Assembly (NCBI GenBank): GCA_041694255.1
Contig: JASMTN010000021.1
Coordinates: 231-64,230 of the forward strand
Direction of reading: 5' to 3'
DNA from: Candidatus Altimarinota bacterium
GTDB taxonomy: Bacteria; Patescibacteriota; Gracilibacteria; Absconditabacterales; Absconditicoccaceae
DNA: 64,000 nt
Below the pieces are notes generated by a model, which was given only the letters and a program-made list of their open reading frames with translations, ran no database searches and was not told the DNA's origin. The position numbers and the translations under genes were made by a program. This document shows positions 13,592 through 29,730 of this stretch, piece by piece (position 1 is the first letter of the stretch; each line of letters begins with the position of its first letter).

Positions 13592-13813
13592 TTATTTTAT
13601 ATAAAAATATTCAGTTTCATTATTTTCTAATTCATAACAATAAACCTTATTAAAAGATGTTTCTAAAATCCAATTATTATCTTCTTTTAAATTATCAAAA
13701 GCTTGTTTTGGATTATTTCATTTACTTATTCATATAACTTGAGTATTTTCTATATCTTTTCAATCTGGCTGTTGTGTAAATCATTCATCAGTTAAAAATA
13801 TATATTTTTTCAT
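13592..13813 (-). CDS. small hypothetical protein, last gene of R-M cassette 1
   Basis: 73-aa code-25 ORF. Its start overlaps the methylase stop (TAATG). Confidence 0.35.
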
Positions 13814-14880
13814 TATTTTACTTTAACATAGTGTAAATATTCAACTACTCCATCTTTTTTATGATTTCTGCTTTCAGTTTTATCTGCTTTAAATCTTCTA
13901 TAATCTTTCTTAAAAACTCAATAATCTCATTTAGATGACATTATTTCTTTTATATCATCCAAATTCATAAGTCATTCATCATTATAACTTAAAAATATAT
14001 ATTTTGCATCAATATTATCAATTAAATCTTTATAAGCTTGTTTAACATAACTTTTACTACAGTATAAAGACCTTTGACTAGAATTATCTCTCATTCAAGT
14101 TTTTCATTTTATAGAAGGATTATCATACTTTGCAATAGTTTCAAGTATATGATAATTTCCTGCATATTGTCTATGATTATATGGTGGGTCTAGATATACT
14201 ACATCATGTTTGGTATTTTGTATAAGTGAATTTATATCTTCATTGAATATATCATGTTCTTTATCATTTACATAAAGTTCTGCAGGTTTTACATTCAAAG
14301 TTTTTTGAGCTGATTTTTTTAATTTTTTCAAAAATGCACCATATACACTTGCTGTGTTTGCAACTTTATCTATAGCTTCAAGTAAACTTGTAAGTAAAAA
14401 ATAATACTCATCTTCTGTTATTTTATTATTTTCTTTCCATTCTTCTATTTTTTCTCTTATCCCATCACATTTTAAAGCATTTTCATCAGAAAAATATTGT
14501 CTTTCAAATTCTTTTCATTTAGTTCATCATAATGAATAATTATTGTATATAAATCACTTTTTTCAAGCTAAATTATTTAAGTATTTACAAACTATTTCTT
14601 TATAAGAATTTACATCTCAAATTAAAAGTTCAGGTATTTCAAAAAGTAATCAAGTAAAGTATAAATCTGTATGATTTCAAATATAATGTCTATTTAACAC
14701 ATAACTATAATATTGTAAATCATTTGCTATAACTTTGTGTCATTTTTGTTTAAAAAATCTACCAACTATTCAGGTTCAAGCAAAAAGATCAGAAAAAGTA
14801 TAATCTTTATTTCAAACAACATGAGTTATACCATTTTCTATAAACTCTAAAAGTGAAAGTTTTGATCAAATATAGTTCAT
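13813..14880 (-). CDS. N6-adenine DNA methyltransferase (D12-class-like)
   Basis: 355-aa ORF. Contains MNYIGSKLSL..., FSDLFAGTGIVG (AdoMet motif) and YLDPPYNHRQY (motif IV). Frame agrees with track ORF 14104-14331. Confidence 0.8.
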
Positions 14881-14929
14881 TTACTATTTATTTATTATTA
14901 AATTGATACTTATAGTATTCATTTTTTAT

Positions 14930-15583
14930 CTATTTTCAAGATAATTTTTTATTTAAACTTTCTTTCCATTTTTCAGGAGAAAACCAACCACATCATTCAC
15001 ATCCAAGATTTTCTTCATAATTTTCTTTTCATTTATAAAAATAATTTATTCATAAAAATGCTTGTCTTTTTCAAGTTCTTTTACATTTTTCACAGTATCT
15101 ACTTTTTAAAAGATTATGTTCTCTTACCAAAAGCATAAATTTTGACATAAGTTGTTCATCAGTCATATTTATATAATCTTCTTCTTTTTTTGTCCATCTA
15201 ACTTGTGGAATTCTATGATCAACTTCTATCTTCCTTCAACTTGGTGTATATCATAAAATAGCATCTTTATTGTCTAATAGTTTAATTATTCTTTCTTTTA
15301 ATTTTGGGTTTAATGTTTTTGTTCTTTCTAATGAAACATTTTCTTTTTTTAGAGAAATAAGTTTTCTATGTGGTGTTTTTCTTCAACAAACATCACAAAA
15401 CATATTTTTTGCATAGTTTGGTCAAACTTTTTCCATTTTATAACCTGCTTGTCTTATCATCTGTAATGCTTTTGCTGGTTGACTTCAAGGAAGTTCATGT
15501 TCTGAACAGTGCCATTTTAAGTCTGATAGTATCTCAAAAATTTTATAAATTTGTGTTCATTCTTTAAATGGATTTTTAATCAT
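14930..15583 (-). CDS. HNH-type nuclease, putative restriction endonuclease
   Basis: 217-aa ORF with IEVDHRIPQVRW ... EHNLLKSRYCEKCK ... CEGCGW (HNH plus Cys-rich motifs). Lies between a C-protein gene and a methylase gene. Confidence 0.6.
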
Positions 15584-15596
15584 TGTTAAAACATTA

Positions 15597-15797
15597 TTAA
15601 AATAAATCTTTAATTTTAATTCAAAGTGCTTTTGATAATTTTTCTATATTTTCAAGAGAAATATTTTTTTCTCATCTTTCTACATTTCAAATATAAGTTC
15701 TATGTAAATCACATTTCATAGCCAGTGATTCTTGAGAATATCAAAGTTTTTTCCTAAATTCTCTAAGTTTTTCTCAAAAACTTTTCTTAATATCCAT
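15597..15797 (-). CDS. XRE-family HTH regulator (R-M controller C-protein candidate)
   Basis: 66-aa ORF. [41 protein letters not shown] is a classic HTH_3 pattern. First gene of the cassette. Confidence 0.7.
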
Positions 15798-15843
15798 ATT
15801 ACTTTTTAAATAATAAAAAACAGCCATCATTATAATAAATGAT

Positions 15844-15866
15844 GACTATAAATCTACAGACTATAA
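15844..15866 (-). promoter_or_regulatory. tandem GACTATAA repeats upstream of the C-protein gene (candidate operator)
   Basis: GACTATAA occurs at 15844-15851 and 15859-15866. A 7-bp inverted repeat CATCATT/AATGATG (15825-15844) plus an A-run lies adjacent and could terminate the upstream gene. Confidence 0.3.
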
Positions 15867-15874
15867 GTAGAGGT

Positions 15875-16279
15875 TTATTTTTTAGATTTAGATGTTGCTA
15901 AATAAAAATTTAGATTATTATCTAATCTTTTTACTTTTATATCTTTTCTAATTTCATTTATTAAAATAGTTAAGTAAGGCACATAGTCAAAATCTTTTCA
16001 TTTTGCTTTTTCTCTAAATTCTTGTAATGCAAATAAAACATCAGAGGTTGCAAATAAATGTAAATTATTACAAGCCTTTGCATATCTTATTTCATTTTCT
16101 AAATTTTTTTCTCAGTCTGTTATTCAGCTTAAAGATTCAATAAATTCAATATAAAACCTTAATTTTTCTTTTTTCCACTCAAATTCTTCTTCTTTTTTCT
16201 TTGTTAAATAATATGTTATTGATGCAATTAGAACTCATCACAAAATTGAAATAATAGTTGTAATTATTTGAGTATCCAT
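15875..16279 (-). CDS. hypothetical N-terminally anchored helical protein
   Basis: 134-aa code-25 ORF. One TM helix, then a helical soluble part. Sits 4 nt downstream of the methylase gene. Confidence 0.4.
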
Positions 16280-16283
16280 AACT

Positions 16284-17066
16284 TTACTTCTTAAAAACTA
16301 AAATATACTCATGCTTGAATAGATAATAATCACTATTTAAAGCTCTATACCTCCAAATTCATCAAGTTCATTGTTTTCATCTATTTCACTCCATATTTTT
16401 AACAATAATACTTTTGAGTTTGAAACCCAATTTTTGAGCTTCATTCATACATTGAAAACCTAAAGGTATCCATTCACTTTTTTGATATTTATCTCAAATA
16501 ACTATAACCATGTATCAATCCTTTTTCAATACATTTTTTGTATTTTCAAGAACTTTTGCAAAATCTTGTAAAAATCAGTCTATTCAATTTGAATTTGATA
16601 AATCTTCTTTTTCTTCAGAAAATTTTATTATATCAGCATAAGGAGGATGTAAGATAGCTAAATCAAGTCATTCAATATTTCTATATTTTAATATTTCTTT
16701 TATATCAGAAAGTGTTTTTTTACTTTTACTATCTCATACTCAAAAATGAGCTTTAATTTTTTTACCATCTATTATTTCTTTAGCTTTATCTACAAGCTCT
16801 TTTTGTATATCAATTCATATTATATTTCTTCATAAATCTTCGCATTCAATAGCAGTTGTAGCACTTCCAAGGAAAGGATCAAAAACCCATCATCATTTTT
16901 TTGTATATCTTTTTATAAAATGTTCTGGAATTTGAGGAACAAAATTTCAATGATAATAGTTTGAATGTTTCCCTCACTTTTTTCTTTCTTCTATAACCCA
17001 TAAACTATCTGTAGATATATCTATATCTTTCCAATTTTCCATATCAAAATCATTAAATTTTGGCAT
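16284..17066 (-). CDS. DNA methyltransferase, N4/N6 (ParB-less) family
   Basis: 260-aa ORF. Contains YYHGNFVPQIPEHFIKRYTKKGGWVFDPFLGSATTAIE and AILHPPYADI. Confidence 0.75.
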
Positions 17067-17089
17067 AGTATAATTTTATTTTATAAACT

Positions 17090-17125
17090 TACCCTAAACT
17101 TACTTATTTAATAACTTTTTTCAAA
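17090..17125 (-). repeat. 36-bp perfect direct repeat, copy B (promoter-like, upstream of methylase 16284-17066)
   Basis: Identical to 13514-13549. Confidence 0.85.
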
Positions 17126-17144
17126 CTTTAGTATTAAATTATAA

Positions 17145-17585
17145 TTAATTTTTTATATTTATTTTTTTTATTTGATACAATAAATATATAGTTGTTAAGT
17201 AAATAATAATTATAGGTATGTTAGCAATAATTTGCTCAATATGCTTAAAATCAAAAGAAATAATTGATACTAATATTTCTAAAAAAATTAATCATACATA
17301 TAAAGACTCAACATTTATTGATGTTAACAATAAATTATATATATTTTTTAGTCTAGACTCTTTTTTTTCTTTATTTCAATTAAAATATAAATATAAGTTT
17401 ATTATATTAAAAAATGAAATAAAAAACATAAATAAAATTAATAATCAAAACAAATAAAGAAAAATTGTAAAAAAACTAACATATTCAAAATTATTATAGT
17501 AATCAATAAAAATATAACCATATCAAAAAAATCTTATTATTATTACAATAAGCAATATAGTTAAAAAAAAGTCTTTTATATTCAT
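17145..17585 (-). CDS. hypothetical multi-TM protein
   Basis: 146-aa code-25 ORF, very hydrophobic and low-complexity. It competes with antisense track ORF 17218-17457. Its orientation matches the surrounding operon. Confidence 0.3.
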
Positions 17586-17618
17586 ATTGTGGTAAATATA
17601 TTAAAAAAATAAATAATT

Positions 17619-17692
17619 TGCTTTAAATTTACTTATTTAGTAACTTTTTTCAAATAAAAAATTTTTTATAATTTTTTAAAAATAAATAAATG
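17619..17692 (-). repeat. imperfect (about 85-90% by eye) copy of the cassette-junction sequence
   Basis: Aligns with 13514-13583. Shares TTACTTATTTA-TAACTTTTTTCAAA and AAAAATTTTTTATAATTTTTTAAAAA. Overlaps the stop codon of the methylase at 17666. Confidence 0.7.
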
Positions 17693-18406
17693 TTCATGCA
17701 TAATAAGTAAAAAATTATAATCTTTTGATTTATTTACCCAAAATCAAGTAGCTTGACAATTATGTTGTTTTTTAATAATATCCTCTTTCAGTACAAATCA
17801 AACTTTTAAAAACCTTTCCATTACTTTAAAAGCAAGTGGTTGATACAATTTTTTTCTTCTTGTATCTCAAATAAGTATAGCACAATAAGATCACTTTTTT
17901 AAAACTCTAAAAGATTCTTTAGCAACTTTTTCTATTTCATTACAAAACTGATCTATATCATGTATATTTGATAAATCTTCTTTTATTTCTCAATCAGAAT
18001 ATTTAATTATATCAGAATAAGGAGGATGAGTTAGCACAAAGTCTATACTTTCATCTTTTATTGAAGTTTTTTTTCTTCTTGCATCTCAAAGTTTTATATC
18101 AATATTAGGTTTATTTTCTGATTTAAAATCAAGTAAACTTTTTGTTAGCTTAACTGAGTTAGGATTTATATCATATCATATTAAATTTCTGTTTAAAAGT
18201 TTAGCTTCAATAGCTGTTGTTCAACCTCAAATCATAGGTTCTAATATAGTATCTCATTCTTGAGAATATCTTAAAATTAGGTTTCTAACAACCTCAGGTG
18301 ACCAGTTTCATCTATATTTACTATTGTGAGTTGCTCGATTTCATCTTCTTGGAAAAGACCACACAGTTGTACATTCAAGTTCAAAATTTTCTGGTTGTTT
18401 TTTCAT
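17666..18406 (-). CDS. DNA methyltransferase, N4/N6 family (DpnA-like second methylase)
   Basis: 246-aa ORF. Contains WSFPRRGNRATHNSKYRGNWSPEVVRNLILRYSQEGDTILEPMIGGGTTAIEA and THPPYSDI. Starts directly after the REase stop. Confidence 0.75.
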
Positions 18407-19285
18407 TTACTCAATTATTTCATCTAAAATACCTTCTTTTAACATTTTCAAGTTATATATATTTCAATTTGTTGCATAATAAGCTTCTTCTAAAGGTTTC
18501 AATGCAGTTTTCCATCATAATCAATCAGTTATCCAAAACATTTGAACTCATTGTTCTTGAAGAAATTTATATAAATAATTAAACTCTCAAGATACAGACT
18601 TTAATTTACTTCATCATCAACCATAATAATTAACTTCTATTAAAGATAATGTTTTAGTTTCTTTATTAAAAATTCAAAAATCAAATCTCCTTGATGATTT
18701 ATCTGATTTAACTTCTATTCACCAATTTTCTTTTATCCATTTAGCTGTTGCTTGTTCTTTATACTCACAATTATTTTTATCACAAAAATCTTTTATAAAG
18801 TCCTCTACTAAATTTTCCATCAAAGTTCAGCTTCTATTTTTCCTTGCATTGCTATCAAGTCAAGTTTCTATACCAAATACATAATCTTCTAAATTTTTTA
18901 TATGTTTATTTTCAAAAATTTTTTGCAATCATGAATTTTTGAAAAACTTTATAAGTTCTTTTTCTCAAGCTATATCAAGTTTAACTTTTTTATCAAACAA
19001 ATATTTAACTTCTAATATTTCTTTAGTTTCTTCATCTAATATTAAATTAAATTTTTCTCTTACAGCTAAAAGTATTGGTAAAACTTCCCTAACTTCTGGG
19101 TATTTTATAACAATTTCTAAAAACCTGTCTTCAATGTTTTGTTCTCAAATAAGAGAATTTAATATATTTAATTGAACTTTTATTTTAAAAGTATTTTGTT
19201 CTATTTTTGGGAAATTACAAAAATAACTCCATGTAAAAATGGTTTTTCTAAAAGTTGAAATTAGGTTTTGGAAGTTTTTTTGCAT
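18407..19285 (-). CDS. type II restriction endonuclease, DpnII/MboI-like family (putative GATC-specific)
   Basis: 292-aa ORF with FGIETGLDSNARKNRSGTLMENLVED and EVNYYGGGGSKLKS. I recognise these as DpnII-family blocks from memory only. Confidence 0.6.
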
Positions 19286-19317
19286 AGTAACTTTAAATTA
19301 ATAATAAAAATTTACTT

Positions 19318-20316
19318 TTATAATTTTTTCTTTGCTTTTGATTTAAAGTCTTCTCAAGTATAATTACATCTTAAATAATCTCTATTTAATATATCTAAAA
19401 TTTTTTCAAAATTTGACTTATTTAAATTAATTTTTTTATTTTTATCAAGTTCTAATAATCATCCAAAATATTTATTGTATTCTGCTTCTGAATAAGATTT
19501 TTTTAAGTTATCTAACATTTTTTCATCAAATTTTTTAATCATACTATCATTATTTGAATCTTTATTTTCTGAAATTAATTTTACCTTTTTAGCAATTGAA
19601 TAATTATTTGCTATCATTTCACTTATAATATCTTCATTATCAATATTAAAGATATTATTTTCATCTGAAATAAAATTATCAGTAAAAAATTTTGTAGCTT
19701 CATCCTTAATATATTCTCTATAATCAAAAATTGACTTATATTTATTGCGATTTAAACAAAATACATATTTTCATCATAAGTAAATTACATCAATAGTTTT
19801 TTTTAAATTTAAATATTCTTTATTATCAATACTTGAAAAAATATTTCAACTTTTATTAAAAAAAAGTGGTATATATTTACTAAGTTTAGTTTTATTTACA
19901 TACATTTGTGGTTTATAAAACGATTGTAATAAATAAATATTTTTTTCATTTTTTTTATAATGAATTATCCAACTTCTTACAGTAAAATTATCTAAATCAT
20001 CAATTTTTTCTATTTCCTTTATTTTATCTTTTTTTATTTTACTATCTATCTCTGGAAATTTTATTACATTAGCTTTTTCTTCATAAAAGTTTTTTTGTGT
20101 ATCATCATCTAAATTATACTCATCAAAATCTTTTACAAAAGTTTCTTCATCAACAACAATATTATTTTTATTTAAACATAAATATGGCTTTAAAAAAGTA
20201 TCCTTAATACTTTTTTCCAATTCATTATCCACTTTTATTTTCTTTAATTGAAAATCTTCGTCTTTAGATTTATTTTTACATAAAATATATAGTCATTCAA
20301 AATTAGTATCTTTCAT
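19318..20316 (-). CDS. hypothetical 332-aa soluble protein (KwaB/DUF4868-like by size and context)
   Basis: Code-25 ORF. Frame agrees with track ORF 19846-20232. I recognise no catalytic motif. Paired with the upstream 4-TM gene. Confidence 0.4.
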
Positions 20317-20322
20317 TGTAAA

Positions 20323-20892
20323 TTAAGAGTTATATAAGTAAATTTCATCTGATATTTTTAAACACCTATCTCTAATAATATTATCATAGTTTATGTTATC
20401 ATATTGTTTTTTTATTATATATATTATATAATTATTTGATTCCATAGCAATTATATCATATCAAAATATTAATAAAAATATATTATATTTAAATAAATCA
20501 CTTTTAATATAAATTATAAAAACTGTTCATAACAAAATAATTGTTATCAAAAGTCTTTTATTATCGTCAATTCATAAAAAAGGAATTAAATATGTAAACA
20601 AGTATGTTAAAACTTCATGATTATTATTTTTAACTAAAAATTCATTATCTTTAATTTTATTAAAAAAAACTTCATTTATTTTATTTCAATATTTTGGTAA
20701 CATTATTTTAAATAAGATAATAACAAAAATAATAGAAAATATTAATAAGAAAATTAATAAATATGTTAAAATATTATGATAAAAGTTTGGTATAAAAGAA
20801 GAAAAATTTTTTAAATCTATTATTATAAAAATAATAAATAAGGGAAAATAACTAGTTATAAATAAAGATATTTTAGATAATAAACTTAACAT
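20323..20892 (-). CDS. 4-TM membrane protein (KwaA-like by size and topology)
   Basis: Track ORF 20686-20892 extends through TGA to 189 aa, with about four hydrophobic helices. Confidence 0.4.
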
Positions 20893-20901
20893 AAAAAAAT
20901 A

Positions 20902-21861
20902 TTAATAACTTAAAACAACAATTTCATCAATTTTTCATCTTCAAGAAGAATTTGAATTTATATTTCTTCTTGCTTTGACAGTTTTAAACTTATATCAAGC
21001 ATAAAGTTCTCTTATATAAGGTGTATCATGATTTGATAACATTACTTTTACTCATTTTTTATCAAGTTTTTTAAAAACTTCTGAAAGTTCTTTTTGCTCT
21101 TTTTTTCAAAATCCTCACTCATTATAGCTTGTAAAATTTGCAGTATCAGTTAATACATCATAAGGAGGATCAAAATATACAAAATCACCTTTTTTAGCTT
21201 TTTCTAAAACTGTATCATAAGATTTAAATTGTATATCTGCTTTTGTTTTATTTAAAAGTTTTGAAGTATTTTGTATATTTTCTTTTTGCACAAAATCAGG
21301 ATTTGTATATTTACCAAAAGGAACATTGAATTGTCAGCTTTTATTTACTCTATAAAGTCAATTAAAACAAGTTCTATTTAGATATAAAAACCTTCAAGCT
21401 CTTTGTATGTTTGAATACTTTTCTTTCCAATTATCTTTCCTATCCCAAGCTCTTATATCTAAAAAAGTTTCTTTATCATAATTTAAGGTTTCAAGAAAGT
21501 TTATAAGTTCTTTTGGATGATTTTTTATAACCTGGTAAGTATTTATAAGTTCTTCATTTACATCATATAAAGAAGATTTTTTTCTTTGTAAATTAAAAAA
21601 CACAGCTCATCATCAAACAAATGGCTCAAAATAATTATTAAACTCTTTTGGAAACAAACTTTCAAGTTGTGAAATTAGTTGTCTTTTTCATCAAACCCAT
21701 TTTACAAAAGGTTTAGCTTTTATGATATCGTTATTTTCTTCAAAAAATTGTTGTCATGATTTTAAATCACTAAATGCTCATGATAATAACCAAGATTGTA
21801 TGATAAGATAATTTATTCAATATTCTTTTGCCAATTTGTTTATTACTTCTTTATCTCACAT
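20902..21861 (-). CDS. Dam-family N6-adenine DNA methyltransferase (DpnM-like)
   Basis: 319-aa ORF. Contains VKWVGGKRQL, EPFVGGGAVFF, NEELINTYQVIK and FDPPYD. Frame agrees with track ORF 21394-21603. Confidence 0.85.
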
Positions 21862-21893
21862 TTTTATAGTTTAGTTATAATATAATTAATTTT

Positions 21894-21921
21894 ACTATAT
21901 TTATTTAACAACTTTTTTCAA
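21894..21921 (-). promoter_or_regulatory. promoter-like element of the dam/DpnII operon
   Basis: The minus strand reads TTGAAA-N16-TATAGT. The -10 lies about 33 nt upstream of the dam ATG. Confidence 0.45.
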
Positions 21922-21923
21922 AT

Positions 21924-22094
21924 AAAAAAAACCGGTTGTATTCAACCAGCCCTATATATTGTGCATAACTTAGAGGGCCTAACCGGTTTATAGTCGTTAG
22001 GACCCCTAAAATAGTAGGTTGCCTACTGTTGTCAGTATATTAGCAACAACAGTTTTTTTTGTTTATGTTTAAGCAACCCTAGAATTCTAGGATC
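21924..22094 (-). ncRNA. candidate structured small RNA of unknown class (about 170 nt)
   Basis: GC-enriched relative to its flanks. Own promoter-like element at 22101-22128. Hairpins: CCTAGAATTCTAGG, CTGTTGT/ACAACAG, GTAGG/CCTAC and GGGCCTAAC/GTTAGG(A)CCC. Terminal hairpin CUGGUUG-AAUA-CAACCGG followed by U8. Confidence 0.45.
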
Positions 22095-22100
22095 CTAAAA

Positions 22101-22128
22101 ACTATAAAAAAAATTAACACAATTTCAA
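22101..22128 (-). promoter_or_regulatory. promoter-like element for the ncRNA candidate
   Basis: The minus strand reads TTGAAA-N16-TATAGT, the same architecture as other promoters in this window. Confidence 0.4.
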
Positions 22129-22205
22129 CAAGTTTTTTAAAAAGTTTAAACTATTTTATAATAAAATTCATTAAATAGTAGTTCTTAATTCTACTTATAT
22201 AGATT

Positions 22206-22730
22206 TTATCAAACTATTGGTTCAAATATATAATTAGCTTTTAATAATTTAGTTTCTTTATTCCAATTAATTTTTTGATAATCTTTAAGTATATTTTCAT
22301 ATTTTATAACATCTAAGTTAAGTTGATTCCTTTCTTCAAAAGTTTGCTCACATATTCAAGTTTTTATCTCTTTTCTAGATGTTATATCATAGTTTTTATC
22401 TTTTTTAAGAAGTATGAACTTATTTTTATTTCAAGAAAAAAGATATATATTTTCATATCAAAGTTTATTAAATAACTCCAATTTATCCATATAATATACT
22501 TTATCTAAGTTTCAAAGATGCAATAAAATATTTACTACTTCAGTTCCTATCCTAGTTGTAGAAAAATTTCAAGGTCAAGTAATTATATACAAAGTTTCTA
22601 TACTATTTTGTTTATATAGGTAGGTTGGAAGCTGAGTTTCAAAATTTTTTCTATCAAAAAAATATAAATCTCAATCATTATATACAAAAGGTACATCACT
22701 GGCAAAATTTAATAGCATATAAGAAAACAT
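22206..22730 (-). CDS. tsaB: TsaB/YeaZ-like protein (t6A biosynthesis partner), short form
   Basis: 174-aa ORF with TGPGNFSTTRIG, matching the TsaB GPGSFTGxRIG motif. Confidence 0.55.
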
Positions 22731-22780
22731 TAAAACATAAATTAAAAAACATTATAATAATTTTTTAAAAAATTCAATAT

Positions 22781-22803
22781 CAAAAAAAGCCCGATATATC
22801 GGG
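22781..22803 (-). terminator. intrinsic terminator after rpsI
   Basis: Palindrome CCCGATATATCGGG followed on the minus strand by a T-run. Confidence 0.7.
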
Positions 22804-22827
22804 AATTTATTTTTTATATATAGAAAA

Positions 22828-23250
22828 TTATCTTTTACTCCATTGTGGAGATTTTCTAGCACCTCTAAGACCTGGTTTCTTTCTTTCTTTTTCTCTAGGA
22901 TCTCTTTTTAATAACCCATAAGGTTTAAGAGTAGGTCTATAGTCAGGATTAAATTCAACCAAAGCTCTTGATAAAGCTAATCTTATAGACTCAGCATGAC
23001 CTCTTAATCCACCCCCATGAACATGTAAAGTAACATCAAACATTTTTCTAGTAGGTGTTCACAATACAGTTAAAGGGAAAAGTGCATCTTTTAAAAGATC
23101 TTTAGAACCTTCTCATGCAAAGTAATCTTCTATTTTTATATACTCTTGATCTTTTTTAACAAGCACATTTCATTTACCTTTTGTAAGATGACATGTAGCA
23201 GTAGAAGTTTTTCTTCTACCTACAGCATAGTAATATTTGTTTGTAGCCAT
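22828..23250 (-). CDS. rpsI: 30S ribosomal protein S9
   Basis: MATNKYYYAVGRRKTSTA... HGGGLRGHAESIRLALSRAL ... KSPQWSKR. Track ORF 22828-23043 extended through TGA. Confidence 0.95.
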
Positions 23251-23254
23251 TTAA

Positions 23255-23713
23255 TTATATTCTTTCAGGAGATAAATGATCATATTTATTTGTAGTACCT
23301 ACAAATAGTTTCAATCTTTTTAATCTTTCTTTTCTTAATTTATTTTTAGGTAACATTCACTTAACAGCTAATTGTATAACTCTTTCAGGATGTGTATCTA
23401 ACATTCTTTGTAAAGGAATTTCTTTAAGATGACCTTTATGTCAAGAGTGTGTACGATATAGTTTATCTGATAATTTATTTCAAGTTACTTTAACTTTATC
23501 AGCATTTTCAACTATAACATAATCACCACAATCCCAGAAATCACATACATATGGTTTATCTTTTCAAGATAGTCTATTTGCTATCTCTACTGCTATCTTA
23601 CCAAGTGTTTTACCTTCAGCATCTACAATAAACCATTTCCTATTATTTTTTAAATAATCAGGCTTTATCCAAACAGTTTTATTTAGATTTTGCTTAGTAA
23701 TATTTTCTAACAT
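23255..23713 (-). CDS. rplM: 50S ribosomal protein L13
   Basis: [29 protein letters not shown]... matches the L13 pattern. Lies upstream of rpsI. Confidence 0.9.
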
Positions 23714-23751
23714 CACAAGTTTTTAAAATATAAACTTTTTTATAACAACTG

Positions 23752-29656: not shown

Positions 29657-29730
29657 AGCGGATGACGGGACTTGAACCCGTGCAAGCAGAGCTGAATTCT
29701 GCTATGCTACACCAATTACATCACACCCGC
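29657..29730 (-). tRNA. tRNA-Gly (anticodon UCA), UGA-decoding tRNA of genetic code 25
   Basis: GCGGGUG acceptor (G1-C72, C2-G71, G3-C70) and U73 discriminator, as in tRNA-Gly. Anticodon stem GCAGA/UCUGC with loop AUUCAGC, giving anticodon UCA. Confidence 0.85.

Follow-up and report, generated by a model that had tools for sequence, protein, structure and literature searches.

A probable, strongly diverged Kiwa pair in an exchangeable slot of a DpnII-type restriction-modification operon of a Gracilibacteria-type host

The window analysed here is the whole stretch of 64,000 nucleotides (nt) from contig JASMTN010000021.1. On its minus strand, genes of a DpnII-type restriction-modification (R-M) system enclose two genes that affiliate with the defence system Kiwa. 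The order is Dam, kwaA, kwaB, endonuclease and second methyltransferase (M2), separated by 9, 6, 32 and 0 nt, respectively. The interval between Dam and the endonuclease is termed slot 1 and that between the endonuclease and M2 slot 2.

20902 to 21861, minus strand: Dam-like D12-class N6-adenine DNA methyltransferase (M1, DpnM-like), upstream anchor of slot 1
20323 to 20892, minus strand: kwaA, encoding the 189-amino-acid (aa) membrane protein of Kiwa, with four predicted transmembrane (TM) segments and a cytosolic C-terminal region
19318 to 20316, minus strand: kwaB, encoding a highly diverged soluble protein of 332 aa with an N-terminal domain and a DUF4868-like C-terminal domain
18407 to 19285, minus strand: DpnII-family type II restriction endonuclease (DpnB-like), downstream anchor of slot 1
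17666 to 18406, minus strand: second methyltransferase M2 (N4/N6 beta-class, DpnA-like), abutting the endonuclease stop
21894 to 21921, minus strand: promoter-like site TTGAAA-16-TATAGT, located 33 nt ahead of the Dam start and a candidate for the operon promoter
21928 to 21953, minus strand: terminator-like hairpin (11-bp stem and T-run) at the end of the upstream transcription unit, immediately ahead of the Dam promoter region

The window was translated under code 25 (TGA as Gly), with TAA and TAG as the only stops. The five open reading frames (ORFs) were found exactly at the coordinates and in the order given by the first-pass annotation, only with TGA read as sense, and TAA terminates each of them. 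Under table 11 the region from 17.6 to 21.9 kb breaks into short ORF fragments only, as would be expected if the five ORFs were artefacts of a wrong code or frame, the outcome named beforehand as refuting. The probability of such an artefact is nevertheless negligible. The internal in-frame stops are exclusively TGA (18 in Dam, 4 in kwaA, 6 in kwaB, 15 in the endonuclease gene and 12 in M2), the entire window including a ribosomal protein operon resolves into long, packed genes only when TAA and TAG alone terminate, and homologues of the same length are encoded on other recoded contigs. When the TGA sites of Dam, endonuclease and M2 were aligned to standard-code homologues, Gly was the majority residue at 28 of the 41 alignable sites and Trp at none. 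The Dam motifs KWVGGKR and FxGGG are likewise spelled by TGA as Gly. A tRNA with the matching anticodon is encoded nearby:

29657 to 29730, minus strand: tRNA of 74 nt with anticodon UCA, labelled 'SeC' by ARAGORN but fitting the general tRNA model

Its acceptor pairs G1-C72, C2-G71 and G3-C70 together with the discriminator U73 correspond to the bacterial glycine identity set, and for this reason it is likely the UGA=Gly decoder of the code-25 genome. From the Dam motifs, the homologue alignment and this tRNA, TGA is read as Gly, not Trp, in the source bacterium, and the TGA-only stops, the Gly alignment and the tRNA refute the artefact. Both kwa genes are intact, have a GC content at third codon positions like that of their neighbours and use TGA for 10 of their 11 Gly codons (4 of 4 in kwaA). 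They are therefore long-term residents of the code-25 lineage and no recent import from a standard-code organism.

The families that the first-pass annotation had assigned to the three R-M genes were recovered by Pfam. Dam matched the D12 methyltransferase family PF02086 (1.1e-69, residues 55-301, the full profile) and displays the motifs KWVGGKR, FxGGG and DPPY; the endonuclease matched PF04556 (DpnII) at 7.4e-90 over profile positions 1-277 of 278; M2 matched PF01555 (N6_N4_Mtase) at 7.7e-27. The family set of a DpnII-type R-M system is thus complete. By family membership, the endonuclease is predicted to cut unmethylated GATC, and Dam and M2 to protect the host DNA. Dam shares 72-73% nt identity with the Dam genes of sister loci, in which M2 is retained downstream of the endonuclease. 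The closest endonucleases (61-69% identical) are named Ca. Gracilibacteria or Absconditabacterales by their sources; an endonuclease-based scan of genome contigs returned a single distant Peptostreptococcus locus. The contiguous order dpnM-dpnA-dpnB of Streptococcus pneumoniae was not found in the window, which reads M1-kwaA-kwaB-R-M2, and the order in relatives is M1-[cargo or nothing]-R-[cargo or nothing]-M2. An M-R-M order is known from the MboI system.

A single transcript of the five genes is suggested by the short gaps, the upstream hairpin and the lack of any terminator-like site between Dam and M2 on the minus strand in a consensus scan, which found five such sites in 17000-22900 against 0.2 expected. 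Promoter-like matches were no more frequent than by chance in this AT-rich DNA (62 against 56 expected), so the site upstream of Dam is weak evidence, suggestive by its position alone.

The 189-aa protein is assigned to KwaA by direct matches to hidden Markov models (HMMs) and to a solved structure. It matched 12 KwaA models of PADLOC (best 1.3e-16, residues 4-187) and, in phmmer, the solved KwaA 9mrg_A (1.8e-6, residues 5-149 against 6-151), an alignment that includes the conserved E-LT-L-TY-PF-G block. The deposited KwaA copy P0002 carries PF28043, the family named KwaA. Kyte-Doolittle hydropathy predicted three strong hydrophobic segments (8-27, 39-68 and 112-131), in keeping with the four or so TM helices noted earlier once a weaker segment at about 92-108, just below the threshold, is included. 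The latter aligns with LTFLATYIVPFMGF of the solved KwaA, a conserved hydrophobic segment taken to be TM3. The closest KwaA relatives are 40-48% identical, and all of them are on recoded low-GC contigs.

The first-pass annotation had recognised no motif in the 332-aa protein, an apt remark. By hydropathy the protein has no TM segment, a phmmer search against PDB gave no match, and a word-indexed homologue search recovered only the protein itself. Its assignment to KwaB, as a member too diverged for current models, is based on synteny, phmmer links, a profile-profile match and a fold search with a predicted structure. As in the window, where kwaA lies directly upstream of kwaB on the same strand, the closest KwaAs (L004, L007, L008 and L096) are directly followed by a gene of about 316 aa whose product is 27-35% identical to the 332-aa protein, and one downstream partner of a related KwaA passes the gathering threshold of Pfam KwaB (31.4 against 26.3 bits). 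An exhaustive phmmer search of 1.84 billion representatives, with the deposited code-4 copy P0001 (W in place of G at 6 sites) as query, yielded nine relatives. The nearest, P0006 (6e-30), has a full-length PADLOC KwaB match (1.4e-7). The 332-aa protein also matched P0012, P0013 and P0014 (6e-7 to 5e-4), which are unambiguous KwaBs (Pfam KwaB PF16162 with 61-87 bits, PADLOC down to 6e-34). Between the recoded clade and these three KwaBs, hhalign gave a probability of 99.3% (E=7e-21) over 268 columns covering both domains. A single-sequence AlphaFold model was unusable (predicted local distance difference test, pLDDT, of 42); an AlphaFold2 model from the nine-sequence alignment reached a pLDDT of 66 and a predicted template modelling score of 0.65. 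With this model as Foldseek query against PDB, six KwaB chains (9nyu, 9mtn and 9mrx) were the only significant matches (1.6e-7 to 5.6e-6, about 340 columns), the next match having E=1.5.

Kiwa had initially been proposed from size, topology and gene order, and the KwaA matches together with the phmmer, hhalign and fold results for KwaB bear this out. Of the checks proposed with it, the profile scan succeeded for KwaA and left the 332-aa protein without a direct match, and the fold search returned KwaB and nothing else. An uncharacterised two-gene module, the alternative offered at the time, is ruled out by the homology of both proteins to Kiwa.

The gene contexts of relatives were surveyed in the four closest DpnII loci on long contigs and in an 80-locus metagenome sample, about 85 related loci in total; for the metagenome loci the genetic code was called per locus before Dam, endonuclease and M2 were located. 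In the four closest loci, all from Gracilibacteria, the order Dam, DpnII, N4/N6 methyltransferase is kept around four different slot-1 cargoes, and further cargoes were found in the sample:

L009: PemK toxin and TM protein
L010: TM protein and DpdB/DndB-like protein
L011: TM protein and PDC-S14
L012: helicase and DUF2290
L014, L023/24, L034/35, L039: GmrSD/HEC-06
L032/33, L050: AbiU/AIPR
L018, L049: NsnA/PD-T4-2-like
L040: PDC-S36
L086: PDC-S56
L029, L030, L088: PD-(D/E)XK nuclease
L016: ParA-like three-gene module

Other occupants are unannotated, among them proteins of 151 and 237 aa in L016, of 215 aa in L018 and of 186 aa in L029 and L051. Slot 1 is empty (gap of -23 to +12 nt) in the recoded loci L020 and L027 and in about 20 loci of standard or uncertain code. 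At least 12 unrelated cargo types occur, most with PADLOC defence matches (HEC-06/GmrSD 1e-86, AbiU 1.5e-48, Helicase 1e-186 with DUF2290 5e-55, DpdB 8.5e-18, PDC-S14 5e-32, PDC-S56 1e-95, NsnA/PD-T4-2-like 1e-51). Conserved flanks, empty and occupied states and unrelated cargo make the locus a defence hotspot bounded by anchor genes. The interval from Dam to the endonuclease recurs as a variable slot in which Kiwa is one interchangeable cargo, and the position is not specific to Kiwa. The earlier description of a pair splitting a DpnII cassette hence holds with two amendments: the backbone is M1-R-M2 instead of M-A-R, and the gap is no one-off insertion. The synteny check proposed with it found the gap empty in some relatives and filled with other defence genes in others. 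R-M regulators as slot content were considered and rejected.

In several sister slots an effector (PemK, DpdB-like or PDC-S14) is accompanied by a small protein of 124-195 aa that has multiple TM segments and carries no annotation, a layout of membrane protein plus soluble effector that recalls KwaA and KwaB. The partners of L009, L010 and L011 had no PADLOC match; the L026 protein was left out of that scan.

L009, 5487 to 5990: small multi-TM protein
L010, 4611 to 4985: small multi-TM protein
L011, 4554 to 5141: small multi-TM protein
L026, 1871 to 2392: small multi-TM protein

The standard-code loci L086, L090, L091 and L093 have a pneumococcal-like order of Dam, DpnA-like methyltransferase and endonuclease, with an extra gene directly upstream of the endonuclease (a PD-(D/E)XK-like protein of about 205 aa, an unannotated protein of 176 aa, or PDC-S56). 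Cargo is therefore accommodated immediately ahead of the endonuclease gene under either gene order.

Slot 2 is empty in the window (0-nt gap). Its occupants in relatives are a variable first gene, then a conserved small helix-turn-helix (HTH) gene and a conserved gene for a protein of 78-204 aa:

L009, 6872 to 8082: slot 2
L011, 6873 to 7895: slot 2
L012, 6872 to 8103: slot 2
L094, 1105 to 2275: slot 2

The first gene encodes a PADLOC REase_II match (1e-24) in L009 and unrelated proteins of 180 and 201 aa in L011 and L012. The HTH protein is of the Cro/C1 type, about 70 aa long and possibly a controller protein; a Pfam scan of the slot-2 proteins and of a 174-aa ORF upstream of Dam in the window gave a HTH_26 match only.

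The comparison of L009 with L012 indicates cassette replacement between conserved flanks, since backbones of about 96% identity carry different cargo and homology breaks at gene borders. Nucleotide identity amounts to 95.9% in Dam, 96.6% in the endonuclease gene and 93.2% from the HTH gene to M2, and both the slot-1 content and the first slot-2 gene are unrelated. Homology ends 11 nt past the Dam stop, returns 1 nt before the endonuclease start and ends again 22 nt past the endonuclease stop; the two adjacent slots vary independently. From these breakpoint positions, the cargo was most likely swapped by homologous recombination, with the methylase and endonuclease genes as flanking anchors. 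The two loci also share a PemK-like toxin gene at different places, inside slot 1 in L009 (4936-5331) and upstream of Dam in L012 (1589-1978). These copies have 70% nt identity within backbones otherwise about 96% identical, and no antitoxin was identified for the toxin in either locus.

Taken together, we regard it as highly probable that the window encodes a diverged Kiwa pair in a replaceable slot of a DpnII M1-R-M2 operon, probably co-transcribed with it, in a code-25 host of Gracilibacteria type. Several points weigh against this reading. Scanned directly against Pfam and PADLOC, KwaB and DUF4868 models included, the 332-aa protein gave no meaningful match, and a profile of its four closest relatives retrieved a spurious fimbrial match from PDB and did not reach KwaB. 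The structural model is moderate, with Foldseek TM-scores of only 0.40-0.47. The window KwaB also has an extra insert of about 20 residues (residues ~253-285) in its DUF4868 half, rich in Lys, Glu and Asn and of low pLDDT, that its closest relatives in the clade do not have. Among the loci surveyed, Kiwa occupies slot 1 in the window only, which offers no conservation in favour of a specific partnership between Kiwa and DpnII. Inspection of the slot borders by eye revealed no repeats, conserved motifs or recombinase sites; the recombination mechanism is deduced from breakpoints; co-transcription is suggested by spacing and simple consensus scans; and Kiwa activity, complex formation and the GATC specificity of the window genes are predictions.

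The failure of every direct KwaB HMM, the very low GC content of kwaB (17%) and its lineage-specific insert would also fit a decayed or neofunctionalised KwaB, the pair then being a remnant or having a non-defence, membrane-associated role. A solitary related kwaA in L001/L002 and a disrupted N-terminal part of kwaB in L004-L006 point in the same direction. We consider such decay very improbable, as the kwaB ORF is full length and uninterrupted, 34 columns are invariant in the four-sequence and 22 in the seven-sequence alignment of its clade, the hhalign match spans both domains and the Foldseek match about 340 columns, the partner KwaA is intact and all neighbours are defence genes. Elsewhere, a related kwaA directly follows a large serine recombinase gene (L001 8001-8549; L004 3499-4991). 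On the 1.1-Mb contig of L001/L002 kwaB is missing, kwaA being followed by an APH-family gene instead, and in L004-L006 kwaB survives only as an ORF for its C-terminal ~205 aa, which points to a Kiwa clade prone to mobility and decay. Downstream of the gene for P0006, the nearest KwaB relative (L094/L095), lie the REase_II-like, HTH and C0 genes that are typical occupants of slot 2. This Kiwa clade thus lies inside the DpnII cassette family at least twice, in the window and in L094/L095.

In Escherichia coli, KwaA tetramers in the membrane sense when a phage attaches or injects its DNA, and KwaB, as a dimer, binds this DNA as it enters and arrests both replication and late transcription without killing the cell (PMC11785009). 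By homology, the window KwaA may form such a sensing tetramer, on which KwaB dimers would dock and act on entering DNA in the same way. DpnII would independently cut DNA with unmethylated GATC, which would give two defence layers from one transcript.

The embedding could instead have been selected for a functional partnership similar to that of PrrC and EcoprrI, in which KwaB holds incoming DNA for DpnII, or Kiwa is released or activated once an anti-restriction protein disables DpnII. The tight packing into one apparent operon would agree with such a coupling, as would the nearest KwaB relative, likewise inside an R-M cassette of the same family. Precedents are prrC, always linked to the R-M locus that silences it (PMC3458546, PMC1484252), and Gam, an inhibitor shared by Kiwa and RecBCD (PMC11785009). 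However, a slot with at least 12 unrelated cargoes that is often empty resembles a generic landing or exchange site, Kiwa of the same clade occurs without R-M neighbours (L004 by a serine recombinase, L007 and L096 in other contexts), and the E. coli system works alone (PMC11785009). Given the interchangeable cargo and these unlinked members, an obligatory R-M linkage as for PrrC was not found and coupling is unlikely; we favour two independent layers that are expressed together. PrrC in the type Ic locus EcoprrI is likewise a non-R-M defence gene located between R-M genes and expressed with them (PMC1484252, PMC3458546). PrrC, however, is a single specific partner that its R-M enzyme physically silences, whereas the system here is of type II, has many unrelated cargoes and would be coupled only hypothetically.

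The pair resembles Kiwa of E. coli O55:H7 and ECOR strains (9mrg, 9mrx, 9mtn, 9nyu; PMC11785009) in the order kwaA-kwaB, in a KwaA of about 190 aa with four TM segments, a cytosolic C-terminal region and a direct sequence match to the solved protein, and in a soluble two-domain KwaB of about 320 aa with a DUF4868-type C-terminal domain. In contrast, the window KwaB shares just 13-15% identity with solved KwaB in structural alignment and escapes the Pfam and PADLOC models of KwaB; the host is a code-25 candidate-phyla bacterium of about 25% GC, not a member of Bacillales or Enterobacterales; and the genes, known here from sequence, lie inside a type II R-M operon and not in a prophage, plasmid or island. 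Kiwa is thus a known and structurally solved system, and the window pair a new, very divergent member in an unusual host.

With pneumococcal DpnII (dpnM-dpnA-dpnB; PMC12707154, PMC4471560) the operon shares the D12 Dam-type, PF01555 and PF04556 families. Interchange between conserved flanks is likewise known from the DpnI, DpnII and DpnIII cassettes that alternate at one pneumococcal locus. The order differs, being M1-[slot]-R-[slot]-M2 instead of M-A-R, and in the present case cargo within the cassette is exchanged and the R-M genes serve as the conserved flanks, whereas in pneumococci the whole cassette is replaced. The nearest hotspot concepts are the immigration control region yjiA-yjiN of E. 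coli and BrxU, a GmrSD homologue, in a BREX-containing defence island (PMC12707154). They share with the present operon that borders are conserved, that empty and filled states both occur, that the defence cargo is highly variable and that GmrSD-type proteins are often among it, but the anchors here are the M and R genes of one small type II operon, with the cargo inside the operon.

More generally, DpnII M1-R-M2 operons may be miniature defence islands with two independently replaceable slots, in which modules (Kiwa, GmrSD, AbiU, helicase-DUF2290, DpdB-like proteins, toxins and extra endonucleases) would be swapped by homologous recombination via the R-M genes in recoded bacteria of Gracilibacteria type and some standard-code lineages; we give this generalisation even chances. 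The operon would supply a promoter to its cargo, and R-M addiction would give stable inheritance. If true, this may be a main route of immunity diversification in the small genomes of the Candidate Phyla Radiation, and the unannotated slot occupants would be candidate new defence genes. In the literature searched, a cargo slot inside a DpnII operon was not described and no paper tied Kiwa to Gracilibacteria, which is absence of evidence only. With the predicted pair, the range of Kiwa reaches a code-25 lineage of the candidate phyla, and a KwaB clade emerges that current Pfam and PADLOC models overlook, so that defence-system censuses of such genomes would undercount Kiwa, the more so with a wrong genetic code. 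The methylase-endonuclease gap of a small type II R-M operon appears as a recurrent, exchangeable home for defence modules and offers a guilt-by-embedding handle for new defence genes in poorly annotated recoded genomes, such as the small TM proteins that accompany effectors and the occupants of 151, 186, 215 and 237 aa that lack annotation. It also raises the question of whether embedding in an addictive R-M operon stabilises or co-regulates costly defence genes.

Defence genes extend downstream of M2 over 13813-17585 on the minus strand:

13813 to 14880, minus strand: D12 methyltransferase
14930 to 15583, minus strand: ICEA/NlaIII-like type II restriction endonuclease (Pfam ICEA 6e-12, PADLOC REase_II 8e-29)
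15875 to 16279, minus strand: unannotated small membrane protein of 134 aa with 1 TM segment
16284 to 17066, minus strand: N4/N6 methyltransferase without an obvious endonuclease
17145 to 17585, minus strand: unannotated small membrane protein of 146 aa with about 4 TM segments

On the other side an ORF separates Dam from the gene of ribosomal protein S9 (rpsI):

22206 to 22730, minus strand: unannotated 174-aa ORF between rpsI and Dam, without a Pfam match

The DpnII cassette lies within a few kb of rpsI both in the window (22206-23716, minus strand) and in L011 (1-4531), and its chromosomal location may therefore be conserved.

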